Source: Longimicrobiales bacterium (GTDB lineage Bacteria; Gemmatimonadota; Gemmatimonadetes; Longimicrobiales; Gaopeijiaceae). Taken from it: DNA of 64,000 nt. Location of the stretch: assembly GCA_965238005.1 (NCBI GenBank), contig OZ250165.1, forward strand, positions 3,424,001-3,488,000, written 5' to 3'. Position numbers and translations under genes: made by a program. Under the pieces are notes generated by a model, which saw only the letters and a list, made by a program, of their open reading frames with translations, searched no databases and was not told where the DNA came from. Below, in pieces: positions 17,535 to 35,638 of this stretch (position 1 is its first letter; every line of letters starts with the position of its first letter).

Positions 17535-17686
17535 TCCCCCCCTGGCTCGAGACCTTCGCGGCCGATCTTGTGGACCGTATCGAGCTGGGCCTCGAAGGGG
17601 ACTGAAGCCGGTCCACCGGCCGCTCCCCACTCTCTGCGGTCCCAGAGGCCCATGGCTCAGCCCCTGATCGGGTGGGACCGTTCCCT

Positions 17687-18667
17687 ATGCGCAAGAAACC
17701 CGATCTCGAGCGATCGCTCGCCAACACTAGCCGCCTCCTGAGACAGAGGGGTTACCGGAATAGGACGGTAGACGTGTACGCGCGATGGCTCCGGCGATTC
17801 GCAGAGGCCCATCCCGGTACCGCGGTAGAGGATCTCACCAGAAGGCACGTGGAGGAGTTCTTGAGCGTTCTCACGGACCAGCGGAGGTTAGCGCCGAAGA
17901 GTCGCAATCAAGCCGCGTCCGCGCTGGCGTTTTTCTTTAGAGAGGTTCTGGGCCGCGATGATCTTGCAGGCATGCCTCGGGCCCGAGAGCCGCAACGAAT
18001 ACCGACAGTGTTATCCCACGGGCAGGCCCGACTCGTGCTCAGCCATCTGTCCGGTAAATATCGACTGCTGGGTTCGCTGATGTATGGCACAGGCGCCCGC
18101 CTGACGGAGTGTCATCAACTGCGGGTGAAGGACATCGACTTCGACCTGGTGCAGATCGCCATACGGGACGGGAAGGGTGCCAAGGACCGTTGGGTCATGC
18201 TTCCCGAGCGGCTCGGCCCGGCGCTACGCCGCCAGGTATCTTGGGTAACGGAACTGCACGAGGAGGACAGACGGCAAGGAGGCGGCTGGGCGCAACTGCC
18301 GGGTGCACTGGATCGCAAGGATCCGCGTGGGGGATACGACCTCGGTTGGCAGTTCCTGTTCCCCGCGAGCCGATGGTCACGTGATCCCGCCACTAACAGG
18401 AAAGGTCGGTACCACCTCCATCCGACAGCGATGCAGAAGCGGATGAAGGAGGCCGCGCGAGCATCCGGCATTGCCAAGCCCGTCACGTGTCACATCCTCC
18501 GCAAATCTTTTGCCACCCAGATGTTTCGGGCCGGATACGACGCGCGTTCCGTGCGGAAGCTCATGGGGCACAGGGACATCCGCACGACAATGATCTACGT
18601 GCAAGCCATCACCGACGCCGGACTGGGCATGCGCAGCCCACTTGATCGACCGGAGGACCGGGACTAG
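17687..18667 (+). CDS. intI: Integron integrase
   Basis: Tyrosine recombinase residues R(GARLTE), K(GKGAKDR), HILR, GH, TTMIY, plus the integron-specific insert LPGALDRK...WQFLFPA...RYHLH. Confidence 0.95.
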   Translation: MRKKPDLERSLANTSRLLRQRGYRNRTVDVYARWLRRFAEAHPGTAVEDLTRRHVEEFLSVLTDQRRLAPKSRNQAASALAFFFREVLGRDDLAGMPRAREPQRIPTVLSHGQARLVLSHLSGKYRLLGSLMYGTGARLTECHQLRVKDIDFDLVQIAIRDGKGAKDRWVMLPERLGPALRRQVSWVTELHEEDRRQGGGWAQLPGALDRKDPRGGYDLGWQFLFPASRWSRDPATNRKGRYHLHPTAMQKRMKEAARASGIAKPVTCHILRKSFATQMFRAGYDARSVRKLMGHRDIRTTMIYVQAITDAGLGMRSPLDRPEDRD

Positions 18668-18839
18668 GCTGCCACCTACCAACAGCCCCTCCGACGCAAC
18701 TACCACGTCGCCAGCGCAGCCCAAACCCGAAGGCATGGAGGTCATAAACGGAGGCTGCACCGGGGCTGTCGGGCCCGCGCGGTCTCACCTACGTTGCCGT
18801 TCACGCAGTGGATCCGATTCAGAAGATCAAGAGGATTCG

Positions 18840-18860
18840 CGGTAGAGTTGAAAGTTAGGC
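18840..18860 (+). other. Putative attI site
   Basis: GTTGAAA-GTTAGGC with no attC hairpin upstream, just before cassette 1, whose distal end is CCCTAAC. Confidence 0.6.
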
Positions 18861-18880
18861 GGCGCACCCAGGGAGACGAA

Positions 18881-19894: not shown

Positions 19895-19961
19895 GCGCGG
19901 ACGAGCACTCAAGAGACGGCGGCCGATCGAAGGACTGACATGCATAGCCCTAACAAGCGAT

Positions 19962-21639
19962 GAGGCCGTGTGAAAACTCACCATGATTGAACGGGGAGCG
20001 AGCACCTAGGGCGGTGAGCTTGACATTTTGCTGGGAGGGGCGGGAAAGTAGTCGGGTGGGGCGTTGCGGACCTGACAGGGCCGTCTGGAAGCGCCCCGAA
20101 GGGCGAAAAACGGCGCTGAGGACCCCCTCTACGCGAGGGCGTCCAGCAGCTGCGGGACCTCGACGATGTTGAGGACCCGCTTCAGGTTGTAGGCAAGCAC
20201 GGTCAGGCTGAACTCGCCGCGGACCTTCCGCATGCCTTTGAGCAGAAAGTACCCCTGGTCCATCCCGCGCTTCATCGTGCCAAACGGATGCTCCACTAGC
20301 GCTTTGCGCTGCGCGAAGCGCGCCTGCTCCCGCTGGAGCCGTTGCGCCATCTCCTCCATCAGGTGCTCGTCCGCCCACCGTGTGATCTTCCGCCCGTCTT
20401 TGTTGCGCGTACAGCGGGGCCTGAGTGGACACCGCTTACAGGCGGTGGTCCGATAGTTCTTGATGGTGCGCCCGAGCTCGACGGTGGTGGTGCGGTAGGT
20501 GAGCGTCTTCCCCGCAGGACAGCGATAGAGGTCCCGAGTCCGGTCGTAGACGAAGTCATCTTTGGTGAAGAGCCCGCGCTTGGCATTGGCCGAGGTGATC
20601 GGTCGGGGCACCAGCGGCGTGAGGCCCGCCTCCACACACGTCTTGATCTCGGCGCCGTGGTAGTAGCCCCGGTCGGCCACCACCACCGGCGTCACGTTCC
20701 TCAGTACCTCCTGGGCCGCCATGGCCATCGGACTGAGCTGATTCTGGTCGGCGGCGGCGTTGGTGACCGTCTCGGCCACAATCAACTTGTGCTTGGCGTC
20801 GACCGCGGTCTGGACGTTGTAGCAGATCTCGATGCGGCCCCCGCTCATCATCGGCCGACTGTCGGCATCGGTGAGTGAGCGCGCGCTCTCCCCACTCGCC
20901 GCCAGCTCTTGCTGGAGATCCTCGTAGCGCTCCCGGCGCTGCTTAAGCGCCGCAATCTTCTCGCGCAGGGCGTCGGCGCTCGGCCGCTCGGTGCCCGCCT
21001 CCGCCTCGTCCTGGCGCTCCAAGTCTCGCAGATAGCGCGCGATCGTGCGCTCGATGTCCCGTTGTAGCTTGGCCAAGCGGGCCGCGGTGTAGCTCCGATC
21101 CCGGGCATTGACCGCCCGGAACTTGCTCCCATCGATGGCGAGCAACTCGCCGCCAAAGAGGTCCAGCCGCTTGCACAAGAGAATGAACTCGCGGCATACG
21201 CCCTTCAGCGCCTGCGGGTGATCCCGGCGGAAGTCAGCGATGGTCTTGAAGTCGGGTCGCAGTCCTCGCACCAACCACATCAGCTCGATGTTGCGATGCG
21301 TCTCCTGCTCCAGCCGCCGGCTGGAGCGAATGCGGTGCAGGTAGCCGTATAGGTACAATCGCAGGAGATCACCGGGATCGTAGCCCGGGCGGCCCGTATC
21401 TGCAGGCACCGATCGCTGAAAACTGAGCGTGCCGAGATCGAGCTGCGCCACGAAGGCGTCGAGGAAGCGCACTGGGTTGTCAGCGGTGACGTAGTCGTCG
21501 AGGACCTCAGGGAGGAGCACCACTTGGGTGCGATCCCTGCCGGCGATATAGGCCATGGGCGAAGCTCCGAGCAAGGGGAGCACTGGCCAAAACACGGGAC
21601 GTATAATATATGGCACGTCAGGAGTTTTCACACAGGCTC
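19962..21639 (-). mobile_element. IS1182-family insertion sequence
   Basis: 18-bp TIRs (16/18) GAGGCCGTGTGAAAACTC / GAGTTTTCACACAGGCTC; 4-bp CGAT duplication. Confidence 0.93.
20129..21556 (-). CDS. IS1182 transposase
   Basis: GRPGYDP...IRSSRRLE, PDFKTIADFR, AIDGSK, ADRGY, VEHPFG. Confidence 0.95.
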   Translation of the reverse strand: MAYIAGRDRTQVVLLPEVLDDYVTADNPVRFLDAFVAQLDLGTLSFQRSVPADTGRPGYDPGDLLRLYLYGYLHRIRSSRRLEQETHRNIELMWLVRGLRPDFKTIADFRRDHPQALKGVCREFILLCKRLDLFGGELLAIDGSKFRAVNARDRSYTAARLAKLQRDIERTIARYLRDLERQDEAEAGTERPSADALREKIAALKQRRERYEDLQQELAASGESARSLTDADSRPMMSGGRIEICYNVQTAVDAKHKLIVAETVTNAAADQNQLSPMAMAAQEVLRNVTPVVVADRGYYHGAEIKTCVEAGLTPLVPRPITSANAKRGLFTKDDFVYDRTRDLYRCPAGKTLTYRTTTVELGRTIKNYRTTACKRCPLRPRCTRNKDGRKITRWADEHLMEEMAQRLQREQARFAQRKALVEHPFGTMKRGMDQGYFLLKGMRKVRGEFSLTVLAYNLKRVLNIVEVPQLLDALA

Positions 21640-21727
21640 CGATCGCTACAGTCGCGGAAGGAGCGAGTGGCTCGCGCGTGCCGCGCTCGGTGACCAGATT
21701 GGCCGCGCAGTAGAATCGCGAGACGTT

Positions 21728-22140
21728 CTATGAAAGAGAGTGTCAAGAGCGGCTCCGCCCCGGCTGGATGCGAAGCCGTGTTGGGCTTGGCACTCAGCCC
21801 CTTGGTTGGATTAGCCGGATCGTCAGAGAGCGGTGTGCTGGATGAGTCAGTCTTCGTGTGGGCCATGATGATCCTCGCTTGGATGATCGATCCGTCCGGA
21901 CTTGATTGAGTGGACCTGGGTCGTACGACGCGAACCATGGTTCTATCTGAGACTCAGCGGCTTGATACTTCTTCGGGTTCTGCGGAAGGGCCTGGAGTTA
22001 GACTCGTGCCTCGGCATGACTGCGAGCCGGGCGTACGTCTCGCGTTGAGACTGCCTCCCGCACCGTCGTCCGGGGATTCGACGTTCCAAGGGATCGAGGG
22101 TCATACGCTGCACCCTACGCTCCGGGACGACGAACCCCCT
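21728..22140 (-). ncRNA. Predicted bridge/seekRNA of IS110-B
   Basis: Minus strand has CGCGAGACGT (22044-22035) and TCTAAC (22002-21997) matching the two target flanks, and ATAGAAC (21946-21940) matching the element end junction. Confidence 0.75.
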
Positions 22141-23134
22141 CTATATTTGGGGTCGACTCAGCTGGGTCGGATCAAAGACTTCTCCGGTTTTGAGTAGACG
22201 AAGGGTGAGCGCGGCGAGCTTACGCGCCAGCGTCACACGGGCGAGCTCCTCGCGCATCCCGCGCTCGATCATTCGGTGATAGAAATCTTGTAGAGGGCCC
22301 CGACGTCCGATGGCTACGTTGGCGGCGCCCTTAAAGACATTCTTGAGTACGCGATTGTGGTTGGGGTTCAACCCTCGCGTGAGTGGAGGGCGACGACGAC
22401 GACGAGGGCGCCCATCAAACAACTCGTAGTCGGCGCCTTGGTCTTCTTGCGCTGAGTCCGAAGCACATCGAGCTGAGCGTACAGGGTCTCGGCACGTAGC
22501 CGAGCACCGTGCTCGGGTAGCTGTGCGACCCAGGCGGCGCGCCCCTTCGGCTGGTAGACACCGCCGCCCGTGGTTCGGATGGCCCGCGCACGGAAGAGTG
22601 CCTTGAGCCGCAGCATCACGCGCGTGCCGTCCTCGACGAGGTTGCGATAGGCTCGAGTTAGACACCGCCGCCCGTGGTTCGGATGGCCCGCGCACGGAAG
22701 AGTGCCTTGAGCCGCAGCATCACGCGCGTGCCGTCCTCGACGAGGTTGCGATAGGCTCGAGTCAGCTCCTTGAGATCGCCTCGGCCGTGTGCGCCGTGGT
22801 ATACCGCTCGCAGGCTGCCGCACCGCAACTGCTCCGACAGTTCGTCGGCATCGACCTGGTCCCCCTTGTTGCCCGATCGCTTCTCGCCTCTGCGGTCGCA
22901 CACGATCACCCGGTCTACACGAGGACTCAGTAGGTCGTAGAGCCACTGCGCCTGTGTTCCCTCCTCGAACACCACGTGCACCGACCCAGCCATCGCGCTG
23001 AAGAACTCCCTTATCGATTCGTCGCTCGTCTCCACCACGCTGCGCGCGATCACACGCCCCCCTTCGCTCCGAACCGTCGCCACCGTCATTGCCTGGTGCA
23101 CGTCGAGCCCCACATACTTGGTGTTCCGCTTCAT
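22141..23134 (-). pseudogene. IS110 transposase, disrupted
   Basis: YVGLDVH, FEEG, KGDQVDA, ARVTLARKLA; 104-bp tandem duplication (22555-22762) and an internal deletion. Confidence 0.88.
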
Positions 23135-23329
23135 GAGAGCCGCCCTCTGCTGTGGTCCATGGTTGTTTCGCAACTCCACGGTACCCACAGGGGGCGTGCT
23201 TTCAAGTTGTGTTAGAGCGCACCCCGGAACGCTTTCGGTCCTACGTGCGCGAGAAACCTTGCGATAACGAATGAGATACTTTATTTACCACAGTACTCTG
23301 CATCAGTTTGTTCTCCGCTCCGCGGACTC

Positions 23330-25048: not shown

Positions 25049-26518
25049 ATGCGCGCACCGAACCTGATGGCGATCCGGTCGACCTTGTTCGTCGCTCTCA
25101 CGACAGCTGCCCTCACCACCCTCGCGCTCGCGGCCGCACCGACCCACGCGGGCGCCCAGGCGACCGCCTCGGATTCCGAGGTCCTGGCTCAGATCGACCT
25201 CTTCTCCGCGTGGCTCGAAGGTCAGATCGAGATCCGTGGACTACCGGGCGCCGTCGGCGGCGTCGTTTCGGGTGATGAGCTGGTGTGGGCTGAGGGCTTC
25301 GGACGTGCGGACGTCGATGCGGATCGGCCCATGGAGACCGATATGCGCTTCCGCATGGCTTCGCACAGCAAGCTCTTCACCGCAACTGCTATCATGCAGC
25401 TCCGGGAACAAGGCAAGGTTCGGCTTGATGATCCCGTCACCGATTACCTGCCATGGTTCACCTTCCAGAGCGCCGCTCCTGACGATCCTCCGGTCACCAT
25501 CGAGCACCTGCTAACGCACAGCTCCGGGCTCCCGCGCGAGGCCGGTTCGCACTGGACCGACTTCGACTTCCCAACCCCCGAGGAGGTCCTCGAGTTGATG
25601 CCCGATCGTCAGGCCCCCTTCTCACCCGAAGTCCGCTGGAAGTACTCGAACCTCGCCTACACCATCGCCGGCATGATCGTGGAGGCGATCAGCGGGATGA
25701 GCTGGGCGGACTACCTTAAGCAGAACATATTTGACCCGCTCGGCATGAGCTCGTCTAGCGTCGATCTGCCGGACGCGAAGATGGCTACTGGGTACGGCCG
25801 TCGGATGCCCGACGGCTCTCGGCAGGTCTTTCCGTTCGTCGACGCGCGCGGGATGGCCGCCGCGACGGGACTCACGTCGACGGTCGAAGACATGGCCCGC
25901 TTCGTGTCTGCCCAGTTTCGGACGGGGGCCCGCGGCGGTGACCGGCTTCTGAGGACGGCATCGCTTCGGGAGATGCATCGTGTGCGCATGCTCGAAAACA
26001 CGTGGACGAGCGGCCAAGGCATCGGATTCAGCGTGCGACGGATCGACGGGAAGCTCTATGTCGGCCACGGCGGCGGATACCCGGGCTACACGACGAACAC
26101 GACGATCCAGCTCGACTCGAAGGTTGGTGTAATCGTTCTAACGAACACGAATGACTCGAACCCTTCCCAGATCGCGGAGCAGCTCATGGGCACGGTCGGC
26201 GAAGCTGTCGCCTCCGCGACCACAGTCGAGCCGGAGGTCGTCGCGTGGGATCCCGCGTGGGAGCGCTTCGCCGGTGTGTACCGGAGCCGCGGCGGCGAGA
26301 CGCGAGTCCTCGTCATGAACGAACGGCTGGTGACGATGAATCCGTGGGGCACGAGTATCGGGGACCCGACCCAACTCGAACTGATCGGCGACGGGACGTT
26401 TCGCATGGTGGCGCCCACAGGTGGTGGCCCGGTCGGCGAGATCGTCCGGTTCGTCGAGGAGAACGGCGAGGTCGTACGGATGATTACAGGAGATTCGTAC
26501 TCCGTACGCGTGCGCTAG
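25049..26518 (+). CDS. Serine hydrolase, beta-lactamase/PBP family, secreted
   Basis: Signal peptide; MASHSK (SxxK), LLTHSSGL, YSN, HGGG. Confidence 0.9.
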   Translation: MRAPNLMAIRSTLFVALTTAALTTLALAAAPTHAGAQATASDSEVLAQIDLFSAWLEGQIEIRGLPGAVGGVVSGDELVWAEGFGRADVDADRPMETDMRFRMASHSKLFTATAIMQLREQGKVRLDDPVTDYLPWFTFQSAAPDDPPVTIEHLLTHSSGLPREAGSHWTDFDFPTPEEVLELMPDRQAPFSPEVRWKYSNLAYTIAGMIVEAISGMSWADYLKQNIFDPLGMSSSSVDLPDAKMATGYGRRMPDGSRQVFPFVDARGMAAATGLTSTVEDMARFVSAQFRTGARGGDRLLRTASLREMHRVRMLENTWTSGQGIGFSVRRIDGKLYVGHGGGYPGYTTNTTIQLDSKVGVIVLTNTNDSNPSQIAEQLMGTVGEAVASATTVEPEVVAWDPAWERFAGVYRSRGGETRVLVMNERLVTMNPWGTSIGDPTQLELIGDGTFRMVAPTGGGPVGEIVRFVEENGEVVRMITGDSYSVRVR

Positions 26519-27286: not shown

Positions 27287-27465
27287 TCCTGCCTCCAACC
27301 ACCCATATGACATTTTGGCACGACCCCCGGCTTTTGGATGAACCATCAACTCAGATGGGATCTCTATCACGCGCACCTAGAAGCCAAGGTCGATCTGCAG
27401 AGGATCAAGCCGCTCCGCAGAAAAGACCTGGCTAGAACTGCGTAGCGCGGGCGCGCCACATAACA

Positions 27466-27924
27466 CTTATCAGGCCCCCGGAATCAAGAGCGCGCATGTC
27501 CCCCAGCGTGCCGCGGAGCGGCGCGTAGAAGAGTGAGCATCGGTCGCCGAGTCCTCTGACTTGGTTTCCGTAGGCAGGTGCGAGCGTAGGGAGCCTCTGC
27601 ACCAAACACTTATCGAGGTTCAACCGCCGGGTGCCCTTCGAGACGAGCTCGAAGGCGGCGGAGCAGGAGCCTCGTGTCCGCTCCTGCGACCTAGAAATTC
27701 ATCTGTACCCTCGTGCCGTCCGACTCCATTCAAGGTGAGCGGGCTCAGGCCGTGTTGTGAGGCCAGGCCAGTTAGCTCCGGGCTCGGGTGAGGGGCAGAG
27801 TCCATGGTGGACCGATGGCGATGTGTGTGAGGAGCGGGAGGAGGCGTCCAATCAAGCGAAGCGGCTGCCAACCATCCGCTGTCGGCTCGAGTTATATGTC
27901 AGGCTCGCCGACCTCCCCTCCCCG
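27466..27924 (-). ncRNA. Predicted bridge/seekRNA of IS110-A
   Basis: Minus strand has ATAAC (27895-27891) and TCGCTTG (27859-27853) matching target TAACAAGCGA, and GATAAGTG (27614-27607) matching the end junction. Confidence 0.7.
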
Positions 27925-28971
27925 TCAGGTGCGGGTATAGAAGCGTTCGGTGTCGAATGCCTGCCGGTTCTTGAGCATGAAGTAGGTCGCCCGGCCGATG
28001 CGAGCGGCGAGGATGCTGAGCGCTTTGCCCTTGCCGTGGCGGCGCGTGAGCTTCTTCAGATGAGCCTGGCCGCGGGCGTTGTCCCTGAGGAAGAGCACGG
28101 CGGCCTCGCTGAAGGCCCATTTGAGATGAGCGTTCCCGATCTTGGCTCCTCCGCTGCCGACCCGCTTGCCTGCACTGCGGTGCTCGGGCTTAGCGAGTCG
28201 ACAGTAGGAGCTGAAGCGCTGCACTGTGCTGAAGCGAGCGATGTCGTGGATCTCATAGAGCAGGGTGAGCGCCAGGATGCGGCCGACGCCGGGGATGGTT
28301 CGGAGCCGCTCCAGCGTGTCGAAGTCGTGGACACGGGCTTCCTGTTCGACCGTGTGCTCGAGCGCTCGGATCACCGGGTCGTAGCGATCGGCCAGGGCGA
28401 GGTCCGCCTCGATCGTCCTTTGGGTCATGGGATCATCGAATGCCTCGGCCAGGCCCTGGCGGTTCTTCTTGTACAGGAGCTGACCGGAGGGTCGAGGCAG
28501 GTTGTACTGATGGAAGGTGTTACGGATGTGGGCGAGCAGTTCGCCTCGCTTGCGCACGAAGTAGAGTCGGCGCCGGAGCACGTCGCGTGTGGCGCGCATC
28601 CCAGGTGGATAGACGTAGGCGACGGGAAAGGCGCCGCCTCGCAGCAGGACCGCCGTCTTGTGGGAGTCGATCTTGTCGTTCTTGGCCTTGGCCCCATGAA
28701 TCGCCTTCATGTAGAGCGCATGGCCGAGCACGAAGTGGATCTGCTCGCGAGCACACAGATCGGCCAGCCAGTACCAGCAGAAGATGCACTCGCTGCCCAC
28801 GACGAGGTCTGAACGGTAGGGCTCGAGGGCGCGAAGGAGTGCCTCGCGCTCACAGCGTAGCCTCTTGTGCAGGCGTATCTTGCCCTGGCAGTCCAGGACG
28901 CAGAGGTAGAGTGTGCGAGCATGAAGGTCGATGCCACAGTAGTATCGATGCTGGCCTGTGTAGAAGCGCAT
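27925..28971 (-). CDS. IS110 recombinase/transposase (intact ORF)
   Basis: RuvC-like DEDD (GIDLH, SEC, KNDKID), IPGVG, RSAG serine, GNAHLKWAF. Confidence 0.95.
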   Translation of the reverse strand: MRFYTGQHRYYCGIDLHARTLYLCVLDCQGKIRLHKRLRCEREALLRALEPYRSDLVVGSECIFCWYWLADLCAREQIHFVLGHALYMKAIHGAKAKNDKIDSHKTAVLLRGGAFPVAYVYPPGMRATRDVLRRRLYFVRKRGELLAHIRNTFHQYNLPRPSGQLLYKKNRQGLAEAFDDPMTQRTIEADLALADRYDPVIRALEHTVEQEARVHDFDTLERLRTIPGVGRILALTLLYEIHDIARFSTVQRFSSYCRLAKPEHRSAGKRVGSGGAKIGNAHLKWAFSEAAVLFLRDNARGQAHLKKLTRRHGKGKALSILAARIGRATYFMLKNRQAFDTERFYTRT

Positions 28972-29452
28972 GGTTCCCCTCCTGGGTTGGATGAATCGAG
29001 TTTGGCGCTCTGATTCTTCCGCCCTCTCTTCGAGAGGTCCAGGAGGGGGCCTGCATGAGCAGGCTTGCTACTGGCGCGTGCGACATCAGGCTCGCGCGCT
29101 TCGCTTGCAGTCGCCATCTTGGTCGCCGGCCGAACCCCGAATAGGTGCTCGAGTCCCTGAGGACTGCACGAGCGAGCTTGCGTGCAGTGGCGATGCGAGC
29201 GATGCGCCAATCGAGCCGATCCTTGAGCCGGTCGTAGTACTCGCTGAGCCAGCTTTCGGGAGATCGGCCGTGATGGATGACGACGGTCTGGACGAAGGCG
29301 TTTCGGAGCTAGCGATTGGCACCGGCCGGGATGGGCCCGTAGCGGACCGTCATCCCGGAACGAGCAGCACTGCGTCGATCGCATCGTTCTTGTAGTTGGC
29401 TTCGGCGATCGCGGCTTCTGAACAAGCGCTCCGTCTTTGCTCACCACCGCAA

Positions 29453-30909
29453 GAAGCTGTCCCAACCGTAGTTGAAGGTTCCTGATAGGGGAGAAAGAAA
29501 AGTGGTGGCTCCGGGGGTCCCGGGCCGATAGGCTCGGGTAGGCAAAAACCCCAACACGGAGCCACCACGATGAAGAGAACGTACGAGGTAAGGGATCGGG
29601 CGGACAAGCGCGCGATCAGGGAGTTCCTGAAGCGGGAGGGGCAGTTTCTGCTTCCGATGCTTGAGCTCGTGGAGCAGACGGAGGTCGCGATCGACGAAGT
29701 CATCCAGGTGATGGGACGAGCGACGATCGAAGCGGTGCTGGAGATGAGCGCCGAGGGTGTGGCAGGCGTGAAGCAGGCAGGTCGGTCACGAGCGGAAGAC
29801 GACACGGTGTGGTATGGCCGGCAGGGTGGTGTGGTTTACCTGTCGGACCGGAAGGTGCGTGTGGAGCGGCCACGGCTCAGGCGCCGGGGCGCCGGGGAGG
29901 GTGGCGAGGTCGAGGTGCCGGCGTACGCAGCGATGCGGAGACCGGGCGCCGTGGCGGATCGGATGCTCGAGGTCCTGATGGCGGGGGTGAGCACGCGGAA
30001 GTACGGCCGTGTGATCGGTGAGATGGCCGACACGGTCGGGGTGAGCAAGTCGGCGGTGAGCCGTGAGACGGTCGAGGCCTCGGAGCGCGTGCTGAAGGAG
30101 CTGATGGAGCGCCGGCTGGATGCGTGGGACCTCCTGGTGATCTACCTGGACGGGATCCAGATGGGCTCGCACCACGTGCTTGCTGCGGTAGGCGTGGACT
30201 CAGACGGAAAGAAGCACGTGCTGGGCGTGAGGGAAGGAGCGAGTGAGAACGCCGAGGTGACCAGCGCGCTCCTAGAGGATCTGGTCGAGCGCGGCCTGGA
30301 CCCGGGCAGGCGGCGGCTGTTCGTGATCGATGGCTCGAAAGCGCTCAGGAAGGCGATCGAGAAGGTGTTCGGCCAACGTCACCCCATCCAGCGCTGCCGC
30401 AACCACAAGCTCCGCAACGTGCTGGGTCATCTGCCGAAGGATCAGCATCCTCAGGTGAAGGCGGCGTTCCGGGCGGCGATGAAGCTGGACGCGAAGCAGG
30501 GCGAGCAGAAGCTCGAGCAGCTCGCCCGATGGCTCGAGCGCGACCACCCCTCGGCCTCGGCCAGCCTACGCGAAGGCCTCAGCGAGATGTTCACGATCAA
30601 CCGGCTCGGCCTCCCGCCGCGGCTGAGGAAGTGCCTGGGCTCGACCAACCTGATCGACAGCACCCACTCGGGCGTAAGACAGAAGACCCGCAGGGTGACC
30701 AACTGGAAGAACGGAGCGATGGCCTTGCGCTGGGCTGCGGCCTCGTTCGTGGAGACCGAGAAGACCTACCGGAGGATCATCGGCTACGACCAGCTCTGGA
30801 TGCTCAGGGCCCACCTCGACGACCATGAACCGGTGGCCGAAATGAGAAAGGCAGGCTAACAAGGAGACTCTCCGGAGCCACCACCTTCAACTGTCAGCGG
30901 GACACCATC
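29453..30909 (+). mobile_element. IS256-family insertion sequence
   Basis: Imperfect TIRs (TGTCCC...AGTTGAAGGT); 8-bp duplication CACCGCAA at 29445 and 30910. Confidence 0.93.
29570..30859 (+). CDS. IS256 transposase
   Basis: GVSTR, YLDG, VIDGSKAL, QRCRNHKLRN, STNLID. Confidence 0.95.
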   Translation: MKRTYEVRDRADKRAIREFLKREGQFLLPMLELVEQTEVAIDEVIQVMGRATIEAVLEMSAEGVAGVKQAGRSRAEDDTVWYGRQGGVVYLSDRKVRVERPRLRRRGAGEGGEVEVPAYAAMRRPGAVADRMLEVLMAGVSTRKYGRVIGEMADTVGVSKSAVSRETVEASERVLKELMERRLDAWDLLVIYLDGIQMGSHHVLAAVGVDSDGKKHVLGVREGASENAEVTSALLEDLVERGLDPGRRRLFVIDGSKALRKAIEKVFGQRHPIQRCRNHKLRNVLGHLPKDQHPQVKAAFRAAMKLDAKQGEQKLEQLARWLERDHPSASASLREGLSEMFTINRLGLPPRLRKCLGSTNLIDSTHSGVRQKTRRVTNWKNGAMALRWAAASFVETEKTYRRIIGYDQLWMLRAHLDDHEPVAEMRKAG

Positions 30910-31115: not shown

Positions 31116-31601
31116 TTGGTCTGTTTAGCGGTCGTGGTAGCTGCGATCGGTTGGAAAGTCGCCGGTCTGCTCGGAGTCGTGCTCGGCGTCCCGGCCGGAA
31201 TCCTCGTGGGAGTCTATGGTCTGATAGGGACGTTCCTGGCCTTGGCGTGGCTCGAGACTCGCCGCGACCAGCTAGCTCTGCGCAGGTCATTCGGCCCGTA
31301 TTGGCGGGCCGAATACCGCGCAGATTGGGAGGAACTCAAGGCGTCGCTTCGCCCCGGCGCCGTTGTGAATGGAGTTGTGGTCAGAGTGCGATATCACGGC
31401 GCCTTCCTTAATCTTGGGAAAGGATTTCCGGGGCTTATCCAGGCCTACCAAATCGTGCATGACGGCTCGGAGCTGCCGTCCGTTGGTGACAACGTTCGTG
31501 CATGGGTTAAGGAGTATGATGAGGACTGTCGGACGGTAGTGCTCACGATGAACGAAGGGTCGCTCTCAGGACTCGGTGACCTCCGACCCCCGGATGCCTA
31601 A
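31116..31601 (+). CDS. Membrane-anchored S1 (OB-fold) domain protein (cassette; start uncertain)
   Basis: N-terminal TM; GAVVNGVV...HGAFLNLG...GLI...VGDNVRAWV; cassette GTTAGGC(31069)...GCCTAAAC(31596). Confidence 0.65.
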   Translation: MVCLAVVVAAIGWKVAGLLGVVLGVPAGILVGVYGLIGTFLALAWLETRRDQLALRRSFGPYWRAEYRADWEELKASLRPGAVVNGVVVRVRYHGAFLNLGKGFPGLIQAYQIVHDGSELPSVGDNVRAWVKEYDEDCRTVVLTMNEGSLSGLGDLRPPDA

Positions 31602-31604
31602 ACA

Positions 31605-32165
31605 CTTATCAGGCCCCCGGAGTCAAGAGCACGCACGTCCCCCCCCTCCCCCCGACGCGTCGCGGAGCGGCGCGCTAGGCGAAATAAGCATCGGTCGCCG
31701 AGTCCTCTGACCTGGTTTCAGTAGGCAGGTGCGAGCGTAGGGAGCCTCTGCACCAAACACTTATCGAGGTTCAACCGCCGGGTGCCCTACGAGGCGAGCT
31801 CGAAGGCGGCGGAGCGAGAAGTCTTCGTTTCGATTCCTCGCGACCTAGAAATTCATCTGTACCCTCGTGCCGTCCGACTCCATTCAAGACGTAGGTTAGG
31901 GAAGGCGCCGCCTCGCAGCAGCACGGCCGTCTTGTGCGAGTCGATCTCGTCGTTCTTGGCCTTGGCCCCGTGGATCGCCTTCTGCCCTGCGAGTCCAGGA
32001 CGCAGAGGTAGAGTGTGCGAGCGTGAAGGTCGATGCCACAGTAGTATCGATGCTGGCCCGTGTATGAGCGCATGGTTCCCCTCCTGGGTTGGTTGAATCG
32101 AAGTGTCATGCTCTGATTCTTCCGTCCTCTCTTCGAGAGGTCCAGGAGGGGGCCTGCATGAGTAT
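31605..32165 (-). mobile_element. IS110-A deletion derivative in attC
   Basis: Both ends (CTTATCAGGCCCCC...GGGGGCCTGCATGAGTAT) with CA core; transposase mostly deleted. Confidence 0.88.
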
Positions 32166-34504: not shown

Positions 34505-34603
34505 CTCTAACGAGTGTTTGCTACTGTCGCGGTAACGCTGCGGGTCGCGCGCTACTCGCGCGCAGCCCAGATTGATGCGCATCAGAAGCCCGAGACGTTA
34601 GGC
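34505..34603 (+). other. attC (uninterrupted)
   Basis: CTCTAAC...tttgctactg...catcagaagc..gagacGTTAGGC. Confidence 0.85.
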
Positions 34604-34631
34604 TGCACGAGCAACGTAAGATCGTGCGTCT

Positions 34632-35357: not shown

Positions 35358-35638
35358 CTTATCAAGAGCCCCGTGGATCGCCTTCATGTAGAGCCATGGC
35401 CGAGCACGAAGGGGATCTGCTCACGAGCACAGAGATCGGCGAGCCAGTACCAACAGAAGATGCACTCGCTGCCCACCACGAGGTCTGCACGGTGGGGCTT
35501 GAGGGCGCGAAGCAATGCCTCGCGCTCACAGCGCAGCCTCTTGTGCAGGCGTATCTTGCCCTGGGAGTCCAGGACGCAGAGGTAGAGCGTGCGAGCGTGA
35601 AGGTCGAAGATGCCACAGGAGGGGGCCTGCATGAGTAT
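35358..35638 (-). mobile_element. IS110-A deletion derivative in attC
   Basis: CTTATCA...transposase scrap (DLHARTLYLC)...GGGGGCCTGCATGAGTAT-CA. Confidence 0.85.

Follow-up and report, generated by a model that had tools for sequence, protein, structure and literature searches.

Element B is a 1,483-bp insertion sequence (IS) of the IS110 family within a 64,000-nucleotide (nt) stretch of DNA from a Longimicrobiales bacterium (contig OZ250165.1, positions 3,424,001 to 3,488,000), here called the window, in whose own numbering positions are given. It is very probably a decayed element of the IS1111 type that was directed onto the GTT triplet of an integron attC R′ box by a seekRNA from its own non-coding region, bearing two guides. 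This reading draws on the anatomy of the element, the repetition of its insertion site, the covariation of the RNA fold, and the covariation of the guides with their targets.

The body of element B occupies positions 21728–23210, with its transposase on the minus strand, and lies between two copies of GTT. Its left end (ACAACTTGAAAGCAC...) and right end (...CTCTTTCATAG) are common to four other copies or remnants in the genome and to intact relatives of 1,563 bp, of which element B is a degraded copy. The first GTT (21725–21727) adjoins the right end and reads AAC on the transposase strand. It is preceded by the 3′ part of attC1 (21638–21724, plus strand), the first attC of a chromosomal integron, whose last 8 nt before the R′ box, CGCGAGAC (21717–21724), form the right target flank that guide 1 would read. 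The second GTT (23211–23213) is followed by AGAG (23214–23217), and together they give the R′ box GTTAGAG on the plus strand (23211–23217), or a left target flank CTCTAAC on the transposase strand. Removal of element B in silico yields CGCGAGAC-GTT-AGAG, the R′ end of attC1. At four attC sites of the window whose R′ end is uninterrupted (26883, 34589, 35718, and 38877), the 10-mer is present with zero or one mismatch and is continued by TTA, and thus, the boundaries of element B are fixed; the exact exchange point within the triplet is unreadable from the insertion because GTT stands on both sides.

The GTT of the attC R′ box is the point at which the integron integrase IntI crosses over, and it is on this triplet that element B sits, antisense to the cassettes and splitting the L′ arm from the remainder of R′. 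Across the window genome, and read on the transposase strand, left flanks end in CTAAC in all four cases available, and right flanks start with (AAC)KTCTCGCGAT in all three. An earlier note on this DNA had placed the element between two GTT copies at the exact IntI crossover point and held that its removal restores the R′ box of attC1. The strings and positions on which it relied (CGCGAGAC, both GTT, AGAG, CGCGAGACGT, TCTAAC, and ATAGAAC) are all present as given, the landing point is as claimed, and the restored site is confirmed both by its sequence and by the fold of the reconstructed attC.

What remains of the transposase gene includes an N-terminal fragment, a 176-amino-acid (aa) frame with the DEDD/RuvC-like domain (22658–23188, minus strand; PF01548, 45.3 bits against a cut-off of 29). 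The C-terminal Transposase_20 domain (PF02371) is found in copy 2 with 42.4 bits, and an intact relative from another genome, designated G224, scores 42.4 bits for PF01548 and 44.8 bits for PF02371 (cut-off 21.3). The G224 protein carries a serine motif, GLAVVTRSSA, set by eye against the GL-P----S(t)G worded in part of PMC11187229. In intact relatives, the gene for a 353-aa recombinase (DEDD/serine) has about 75 nt on its upstream side and some 420 nt of non-coding sequence on its downstream side. The candidate subterminal repeats, also identified by eye, follow terminal extensions of 5 nt and 3 nt: TTGAAAG, close to the left end, is opposed by CTTTCA close to the right end over 6–7 bp, which is at the bottom of the published IS1111 range (7–17 bp), and the occurrence of TTGAGAG with CTCTCA in relatives suggests that the pair co-varies. 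Judged by its transposase, long 3′ non-coding region, and short candidate subterminal inverted repeats, element B is an IS110-family element of IS1111 architecture. A search of 72,556 plasmid records with its transposase returned a best match of only 31.6% identity, with neither Klebsiella nor Pseudomonas among the 25 matching records, which suggests a lineage separate from the known IS1111-attC elements.

The 3′ non-coding region (21728–22140, minus strand; 413–416 nt) lies downstream of the transposase gene and is the presumed source of a seekRNA, or bridge RNA. Rfam returned no family at gathering score across the whole window and none at E values up to 1 on 21700–22200. The fold was counted on an alignment of 31 distinct non-coding regions, in which a conserved scaffold with hypervariable patches forms four helices: pairing holds in 98.2% of 895 cells, and both partners have changed in 11 of the 29 pairs. 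None of 500 shuffles reached this result, and sliding the partners by 1–3 columns brought pairing down to 40%–50%. The predicted target-binding domain (21981–22062, minus strand) comprises an outer stem (UGCGGGAGG..GUCU / AGG..CCCUUCCGCA), an internal loop holding both putative guides, and an inner hairpin (22009–22034) flanked by guide 1 on the 5′ strand of the loop and guide 2 on the 3′ strand.

Guide 1, CGCGAGACGT (22035–22044, minus strand), is a 10/10 match with the sequence of the bottom strand of the right flank plus core, and guide 2, (G)TCTAAC (21997–22002, minus strand), corresponds to the left flank plus core as read on the top strand. On the transposase strand, TCTAAC (22002–21997) begins 32 nt 3′ of CGCGAGACGT (22044–22035). 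A donor-side domain (21932–21980, minus strand), closed by GAACC/GGUUC, holds AUAGAAC (21940–21946), which equals the right end of the element plus the core.

That such an RNA is made, is bound by the recombinase, and directs recombination is taken from the published mechanism of the family. The region of about 420 nt past the recombinase gene would then specify a seekRNA (bridge RNA) with one internal loop bearing two guides: guide 1 (10 nt, 5′ side) would base-pair with the right target flank and core on the top strand, and guide 2 (6–7 nt, 3′ side) with the left flank and core on the bottom strand. Together, the guides would direct the circular IS into ...YCTAAC/GTCTCGCG... (IS strand; here and below, a slash within a site marks a junction), which is the bottom strand of attC at the R′ GTT, so that the IS would land antisense to the cassettes. 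Guide 1 would read the spacer between L′ and R′, which is uniform within the attC family of one genome; because this spacer differs between genomes, guide 1 would be retuned to match.

Relatives of element B were found in 28 of the 401 genomes of the phylum that were searched. G224, which belongs to the same family as the window genome, carries the intact 1,563-bp form six times within 40 kb, in identical copies that are all inserted as ...CTAAC–IS–(AAC)GTCTCTGCGATTC. Among public genome contigs, one Longimicrobiales metagenome-assembled genome (MAG) contains 13 identical copies, and relatives occur in many Gemmatimonadota MAGs. More distant relatives were examined at 12 loci, and the left flank ends in CTAAC at all 11 where one is available; when all loci are pooled, CTAAC is the ending of 54 of the 78 distinct left flanks, and NNAAC that of most of the other 24. 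The sites of relatives were also scanned for a closing GTT box, a search with shuffled controls that replaced an unconstrained—and noisy—folding of 180-nt flanks (11 of 46 sites): closure on a GTTAG box 89–141 nt away, at an energy no higher than −16.8 kcal/mol, is possible for 16 of 47 distinct sites and for only 3 of 47 shuffled controls. The other sites may be degenerate, may have been interrupted, or may not be attC.

The guides change with their targets. The element of G224 is 94% identical in DNA to that of the window, and guide 1 is GCAGAGACGT with sites GCAGAGAC-GTT in the former but CGCGAGACGT with CGCGAGAC-GTT in the latter. Further versions of guide 1 are TGAGTCGTT with target TGAGTC-GTT, CGCCGAGTT with CGCCGA-GTT, and CCGGGGCGTT with CCAGGGC-GTT, and relatives whose left flanks are other than CTAAC (GGCCGAC, CTCCGAAC, TCGCATAAC, and CGTAAAC) carry a matching guide 2. 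In contigs from public runs, relatives with a TGC variant at 22042–22044 (the GCAGAGAC guide) end in flanks ...GAATCGCA. Among 79 loci fetched, 49 had a recognisable scaffold, and 40 of these offered guide 1 together with a right flank; in the resulting 31 unique guide-1/target pairs, guide 1 agrees with its cognate right flank outside the core at 5.77 of 9 positions, as opposed to 3.01 of 9 for non-cognate flanks. Guide 2 agrees with the cognate left flank at 3.85 of 6 positions and with non-cognate flanks at 2.44 of 6 (40 unique pairs), and for either guide, none of 10,000 permutations scored as high. The earlier note had read these segments as guides and had proposed both a covariation test across homologues and a folding of 21728–22140; both were run, and the guide reading is borne out, with the segments co-varying with their flanks and lying within a fold that shows compensatory changes.

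Element B itself is no longer functional. Compared with other copies, it carries three lesions, the first being a perfect, frame-shifting 104-bp tandem duplication (22555–22762; units 22555–22658 and 22659–22762; junction ...TCTA/ACTCG... on the transposase strand) that is absent from relatives, namely the G224 copies and a contig of the public run X17 that shows the unduplicated joint. No contig of the best-matching public DNA run reaches across this junction. The second is a 175-bp deletion relative to copy 2 and the intact relatives, with GCG microhomology at its junction (22433–22434), near which public-run contigs of relatives have loose ends (22434–22436). The third, a deletion of about 12 nt, removes the inner hairpin (helix 4) of the donor domain of the RNA. 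With transposase and RNA both damaged, the copy is dead, a fossil; thus, of the claim that this RNA is programmed to the IntI site, the guide reading stands, but not as a property that the window copy can still exercise. None of the five copies in the window genome is intact: of the four further copies or remnants, which occupy attC-like sites at 0.36, 1.62, 1.74, and 2.69 Mb, remote from any IntI, one carries a 180-bp unit four times with a junction that creates a stop codon (locus L014, G000:C1:1619624-1620343), two are 3′-truncated, and one is a solo right end.

The 104-bp (twofold) and 180-bp (fourfold) duplications share their boundaries. On the transposase strand, the unit starts at G/ACTCG and ends at TCTA/ without microhomology, and both junctions read TCTAACTC, that is, the 8-mer of guide 2 plus its next two bases. 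ACTCG occurs only twice in the intact element; both occurrences have been used, each joined to the next TCTA downstream, and random placement would give such boundaries about 4 times in a million per event. Bridge recombinases are described in part of a 2026 preprint (10.64898/2026.08.31.748434) as acting at 'half-match' sites, which pair the core and one arm only. Half-site recombination between sister copies would yield such duplications and would place the exchange at A/AC, and the element's own recombinase–RNA machinery may have left the internal duplications as scars of such half-match events. If they are, they constitute a natural record of off-target activity relevant to the use of bridge recombinases as tools. 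A more far-reaching account can be held only tentatively: a separate, Gemmatimonadota-centred lineage would have converged on the R′ GTT and retuned guide 1 to the attC 'dialect' of each host, with the duplications as half-match scars and the exchange at A/AC.

A repeat of another kind was seen in an IS110-family lineage of 40% identity (locus L026, genome G221), where a 458-bp unit is present three times at 100% identity (locus positions 58–1435). This repeat joins the right end of the element, ...CATAGAAG, to an internal site, ...GCGAAG/CTGACG, with GAAG shared.

Several observations weigh against the reading of element B as an RNA-guided element of the IS1111 type. The NF033542 model scores 120 bits, below its cut-off of 140, albeit over a full-length alignment (6–341), as for a divergent IS110 member. 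Guide 1 in this subgroup ends in GTA, while the core is GTT. No guide tracking the left end of the element was found when the variable triplet of the donor-loop 5′ strand was compared by eye with the first 5 nt, and a covariation test of the donor-side match is impossible because neither ATAGAAC nor the right end varies among relatives. Complete attC hairpins are demonstrable at only the 16 of 47 sites of relatives given above. Taken alone, CGCGAGACGT is only marginally past chance, since a match of at least 10 to the 40-bp target arises in 12 of 300 dinucleotide shuffles of the non-coding region; the weight, therefore, rests on the repetition of sites and not on the 10-mer. The relatives are kin, and so the permutation figures overstate independence, although the direction of the result is still plain. 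Contigs from public RNA libraries cover IS relatives at 90%–99% likeness, including the non-coding region, and one of 532 nt (run X17) spans 21724–22245; these contigs show neither ends nor strand, and DNA carry-over may account for them.

The alternative that survives best holds that the matching segments are a piece of attC picked up by the element and that the protein alone reads the attC hairpin or the R′ box, with no RNA guide. attC is structured and partly palindromic, which makes attC-like strings unsurprising in an attC-dwelling element, the 10-mer alone is within reach of shuffled sequence, and the RNA is known here from sequence only. This explanation is nevertheless improbable: the segments occupy fixed positions of a fold conserved with compensatory changes and change with their own flanks, even in members retargeted to left flanks that do not resemble attC, and the published mechanism of the family is RNA-guided (parts of PMC11187229 and PMC11208160).

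Still less probable is movement by the integron integrase, which would have carried the element as a GTT-bounded, cassette-like unit and so explain its place on the IntI crossover point. The GTT on both sides and an IntI encoded 3 kb upstream would suit this, but the element has no attC of its own and encodes its own recombinase, and its four further copies lie far from the single IntI of the genome. The 13 identical copies in the related MAG point the same way: their other-side flanks share only 45–85 nt (the attC half) and are unrelated beyond it, so these copies look like independent transpositions into similar attC sites. They share nothing on the side of the next cassette, and so lend no support to the suggestion of the earlier note that the IS may travel with that cassette. 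Least probable of all, and close to refuted, is coincidental matching in a GC-rich, repeat-rich region with insertion at CTAAC for other reasons, for which the same 12 of 300 shuffles speak but against which stand the permutation results for both guides and a guide change between two 94%-identical elements that exactly tracks the change of target. Direction by a seekRNA with two guides remains the reading adopted here.

The integron at the site of element B is real, with an integrase gene and a cassette array whose repeats have the features of attC. The integrase gene intI (17672–18667, plus strand) encodes 331 aa, scores 326.8 bits for TIGR02249 (cut-off 265) with matches to PF00589 and PF13495, and is the sole integron integrase above the cut-off in the 4.84-Mb genome. 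It runs in the same direction as the cassettes, which is the less common integron layout; G224 has a like arrangement, with intI along the cassettes and IS copies beginning 2 kb past its intI. A GTTAGGC about 190 bp past the intI stop (in 17672–18870) is a candidate attI. The array consists of plus-strand open reading frames (ORFs), each followed by an imperfect palindrome that starts with ...CTAAC and ends with ...GAGAC-GTTAG/T (G or T as the last letter); such ends lie at 21725, 26895, 34601, 35730, and 38889. One cassette-like ORF in the array (25049–26518) belongs to the serine beta-lactamase/esterase family (PF00144, 247 bits).

attC1 has been hit twice, by an IS1182-family element in its 5′ half and by element B at its 3′ end. 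Its 5′ part (19949–19966, plus strand) comprises the R″ box, (C)CCTAAC, together with the beginning of L″, where it is cut off by the IS1182-family element (19967–21633). The latter has inverted repeats GTGTGAAAACTC and AGGC on both sides, with its transposase at 20129–21631 on the minus strand (NF033551, 424 bits). Once both insertion sequences are taken out in silico, a site of 112 nt remains, which folds with CTAACG closing on CGTTAG; its fold energy is only about 1.5 standard deviations below that of shuffles, and the R′/R″ closure is present in the folds of both attC1 and the attC at 34507–34608. Because it divides L′ from the remainder of R′, the insertion at R′ is predicted to block cassette excision at that junction.

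A second IS110-family element in the window, element C (about 27462–29058, minus strand), also has a 3′ non-coding region and also lies antisense in the same family of attC-like repeats. It differs from element B in occupying the R″-proximal (5′) side of attC, as in the IS1111-attC group, and in its transposase, which is intact and unrelated in detail (27925–28971, minus strand; 348 aa; NF033542, 184.6 bits). The best plasmid relatives of this transposase are 50%–60% identical, and among enterobacterial plasmids, a tblastn search returned only ISEc45-like matches at 26%. One Pseudomonas match from the plasmid searches lies outside any integron. The non-coding region of element C carries CGCTTGAT, which matches its own left flank, and partial copies of the element are found at 31601–32162 and about 35395–35635. 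A gene for a Mutator/IS256-type transposase lies at 29570–30859.

Outside the window, a member of the 40%-identity group (locus L021, genome G347) has a left flank ...GCCGCCTAAC/AAGG and a non-coding region that carries AATAACAAGGAT, and its lineage may target the R″ side of attC-like sites. The G224 genome has seven identical copies of a gene that encodes a XerC/D-like tyrosine recombinase of 297 aa (for example, G224:C1, 464170–464970, 646060–646860, and 2205768–2206568), several of which adjoin IS copies and one of which adjoins intI; this gene is probably another mobile element of attC arrays.

Elements of the IS1111 family that target attC (ISPa21, ISPst6, ISKpn4, and ISPa25) have been described since 2008–2009, and the principle of an RNA-guided IS1111 element targeting attC is, thus, already known. 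What appears to be new is the landing point at the R′ GTT rather than at the 5′ end, the Gemmatimonadota lineage, and the natural series of retuned guides. The earlier note had left open whether this specificity has been described: attC targeting and seekRNAs are both in print, while the R′ GTT landing and the lineage appear new. A literature search found no R′-targeting IS and no description of this lineage, but two founding papers fell outside its coverage, so an earlier description is possible. The natural series comprises around 30 distinct versions of guide 1 and several of guide 2 on one conserved scaffold, and would help to establish how seekRNAs pair with their targets beyond the handful of elements studied experimentally. 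With element B at R′ and element C at the 5′ side, both ends of attC sites are occupied by RNA-guided elements, and environmental chromosomal integrons are, on this reading, parasitised at both R boxes of attC by different elements of this kind.

The comparison with published systems draws on parts of the papers cited. seekRNAs were recovered together with the purified transposase and carry segments that match each strand of the attC target, and those of ISKpn4, ISPst6, and ISPa25 match the attC target (PMC11187229, 2024); bridge RNAs are predicted in 93% of IS1111 elements, where they lie in the right end (PMC11208160). The lineage of element B resembles the IS1111-attC group in its 3′ non-coding region, its candidate subterminal inverted repeats, and its site- and orientation-specific insertion into attC antisense to the cassettes (PMC11187229 and PMC3001079), and it shares with IS1111 seekRNAs the order of guides, the match to the top strand lying 5′ of that to the bottom strand (PMC11187229). 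It differs in that the known IS1111-attC members insert near the 5′ end of attC (PMC3001079), whereas the lineage of element B inserts at the 3′ end, at the R′ GTT.

Group IIC-attC introns are likewise a mobile class specialised on attC and inserted antisense (PMC3001079); unlike element B, however, they are retro-elements whose recognition of attC relies on its stem-loop and on a TTGTT motif close to the 5′ end, with neither recombinase nor guide loop. IS621 and the IS110 group have in common with element B a target RNA whose internal loop reads both strands at a short core, as well as a programmable DEDD and serine recombinase (PMC11208160 and PMC11208158). IS621 carries its RNA in the left end, has the two guides in the opposite order and CT as the core, and bears subterminal repeats of only 2–3 bp. 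The putative RNA of element B instead occupies the right end and has a multi-branch loop on its donor side, as in IS1111 members (PMC11208160), and AAC/GTT is the shared triplet.

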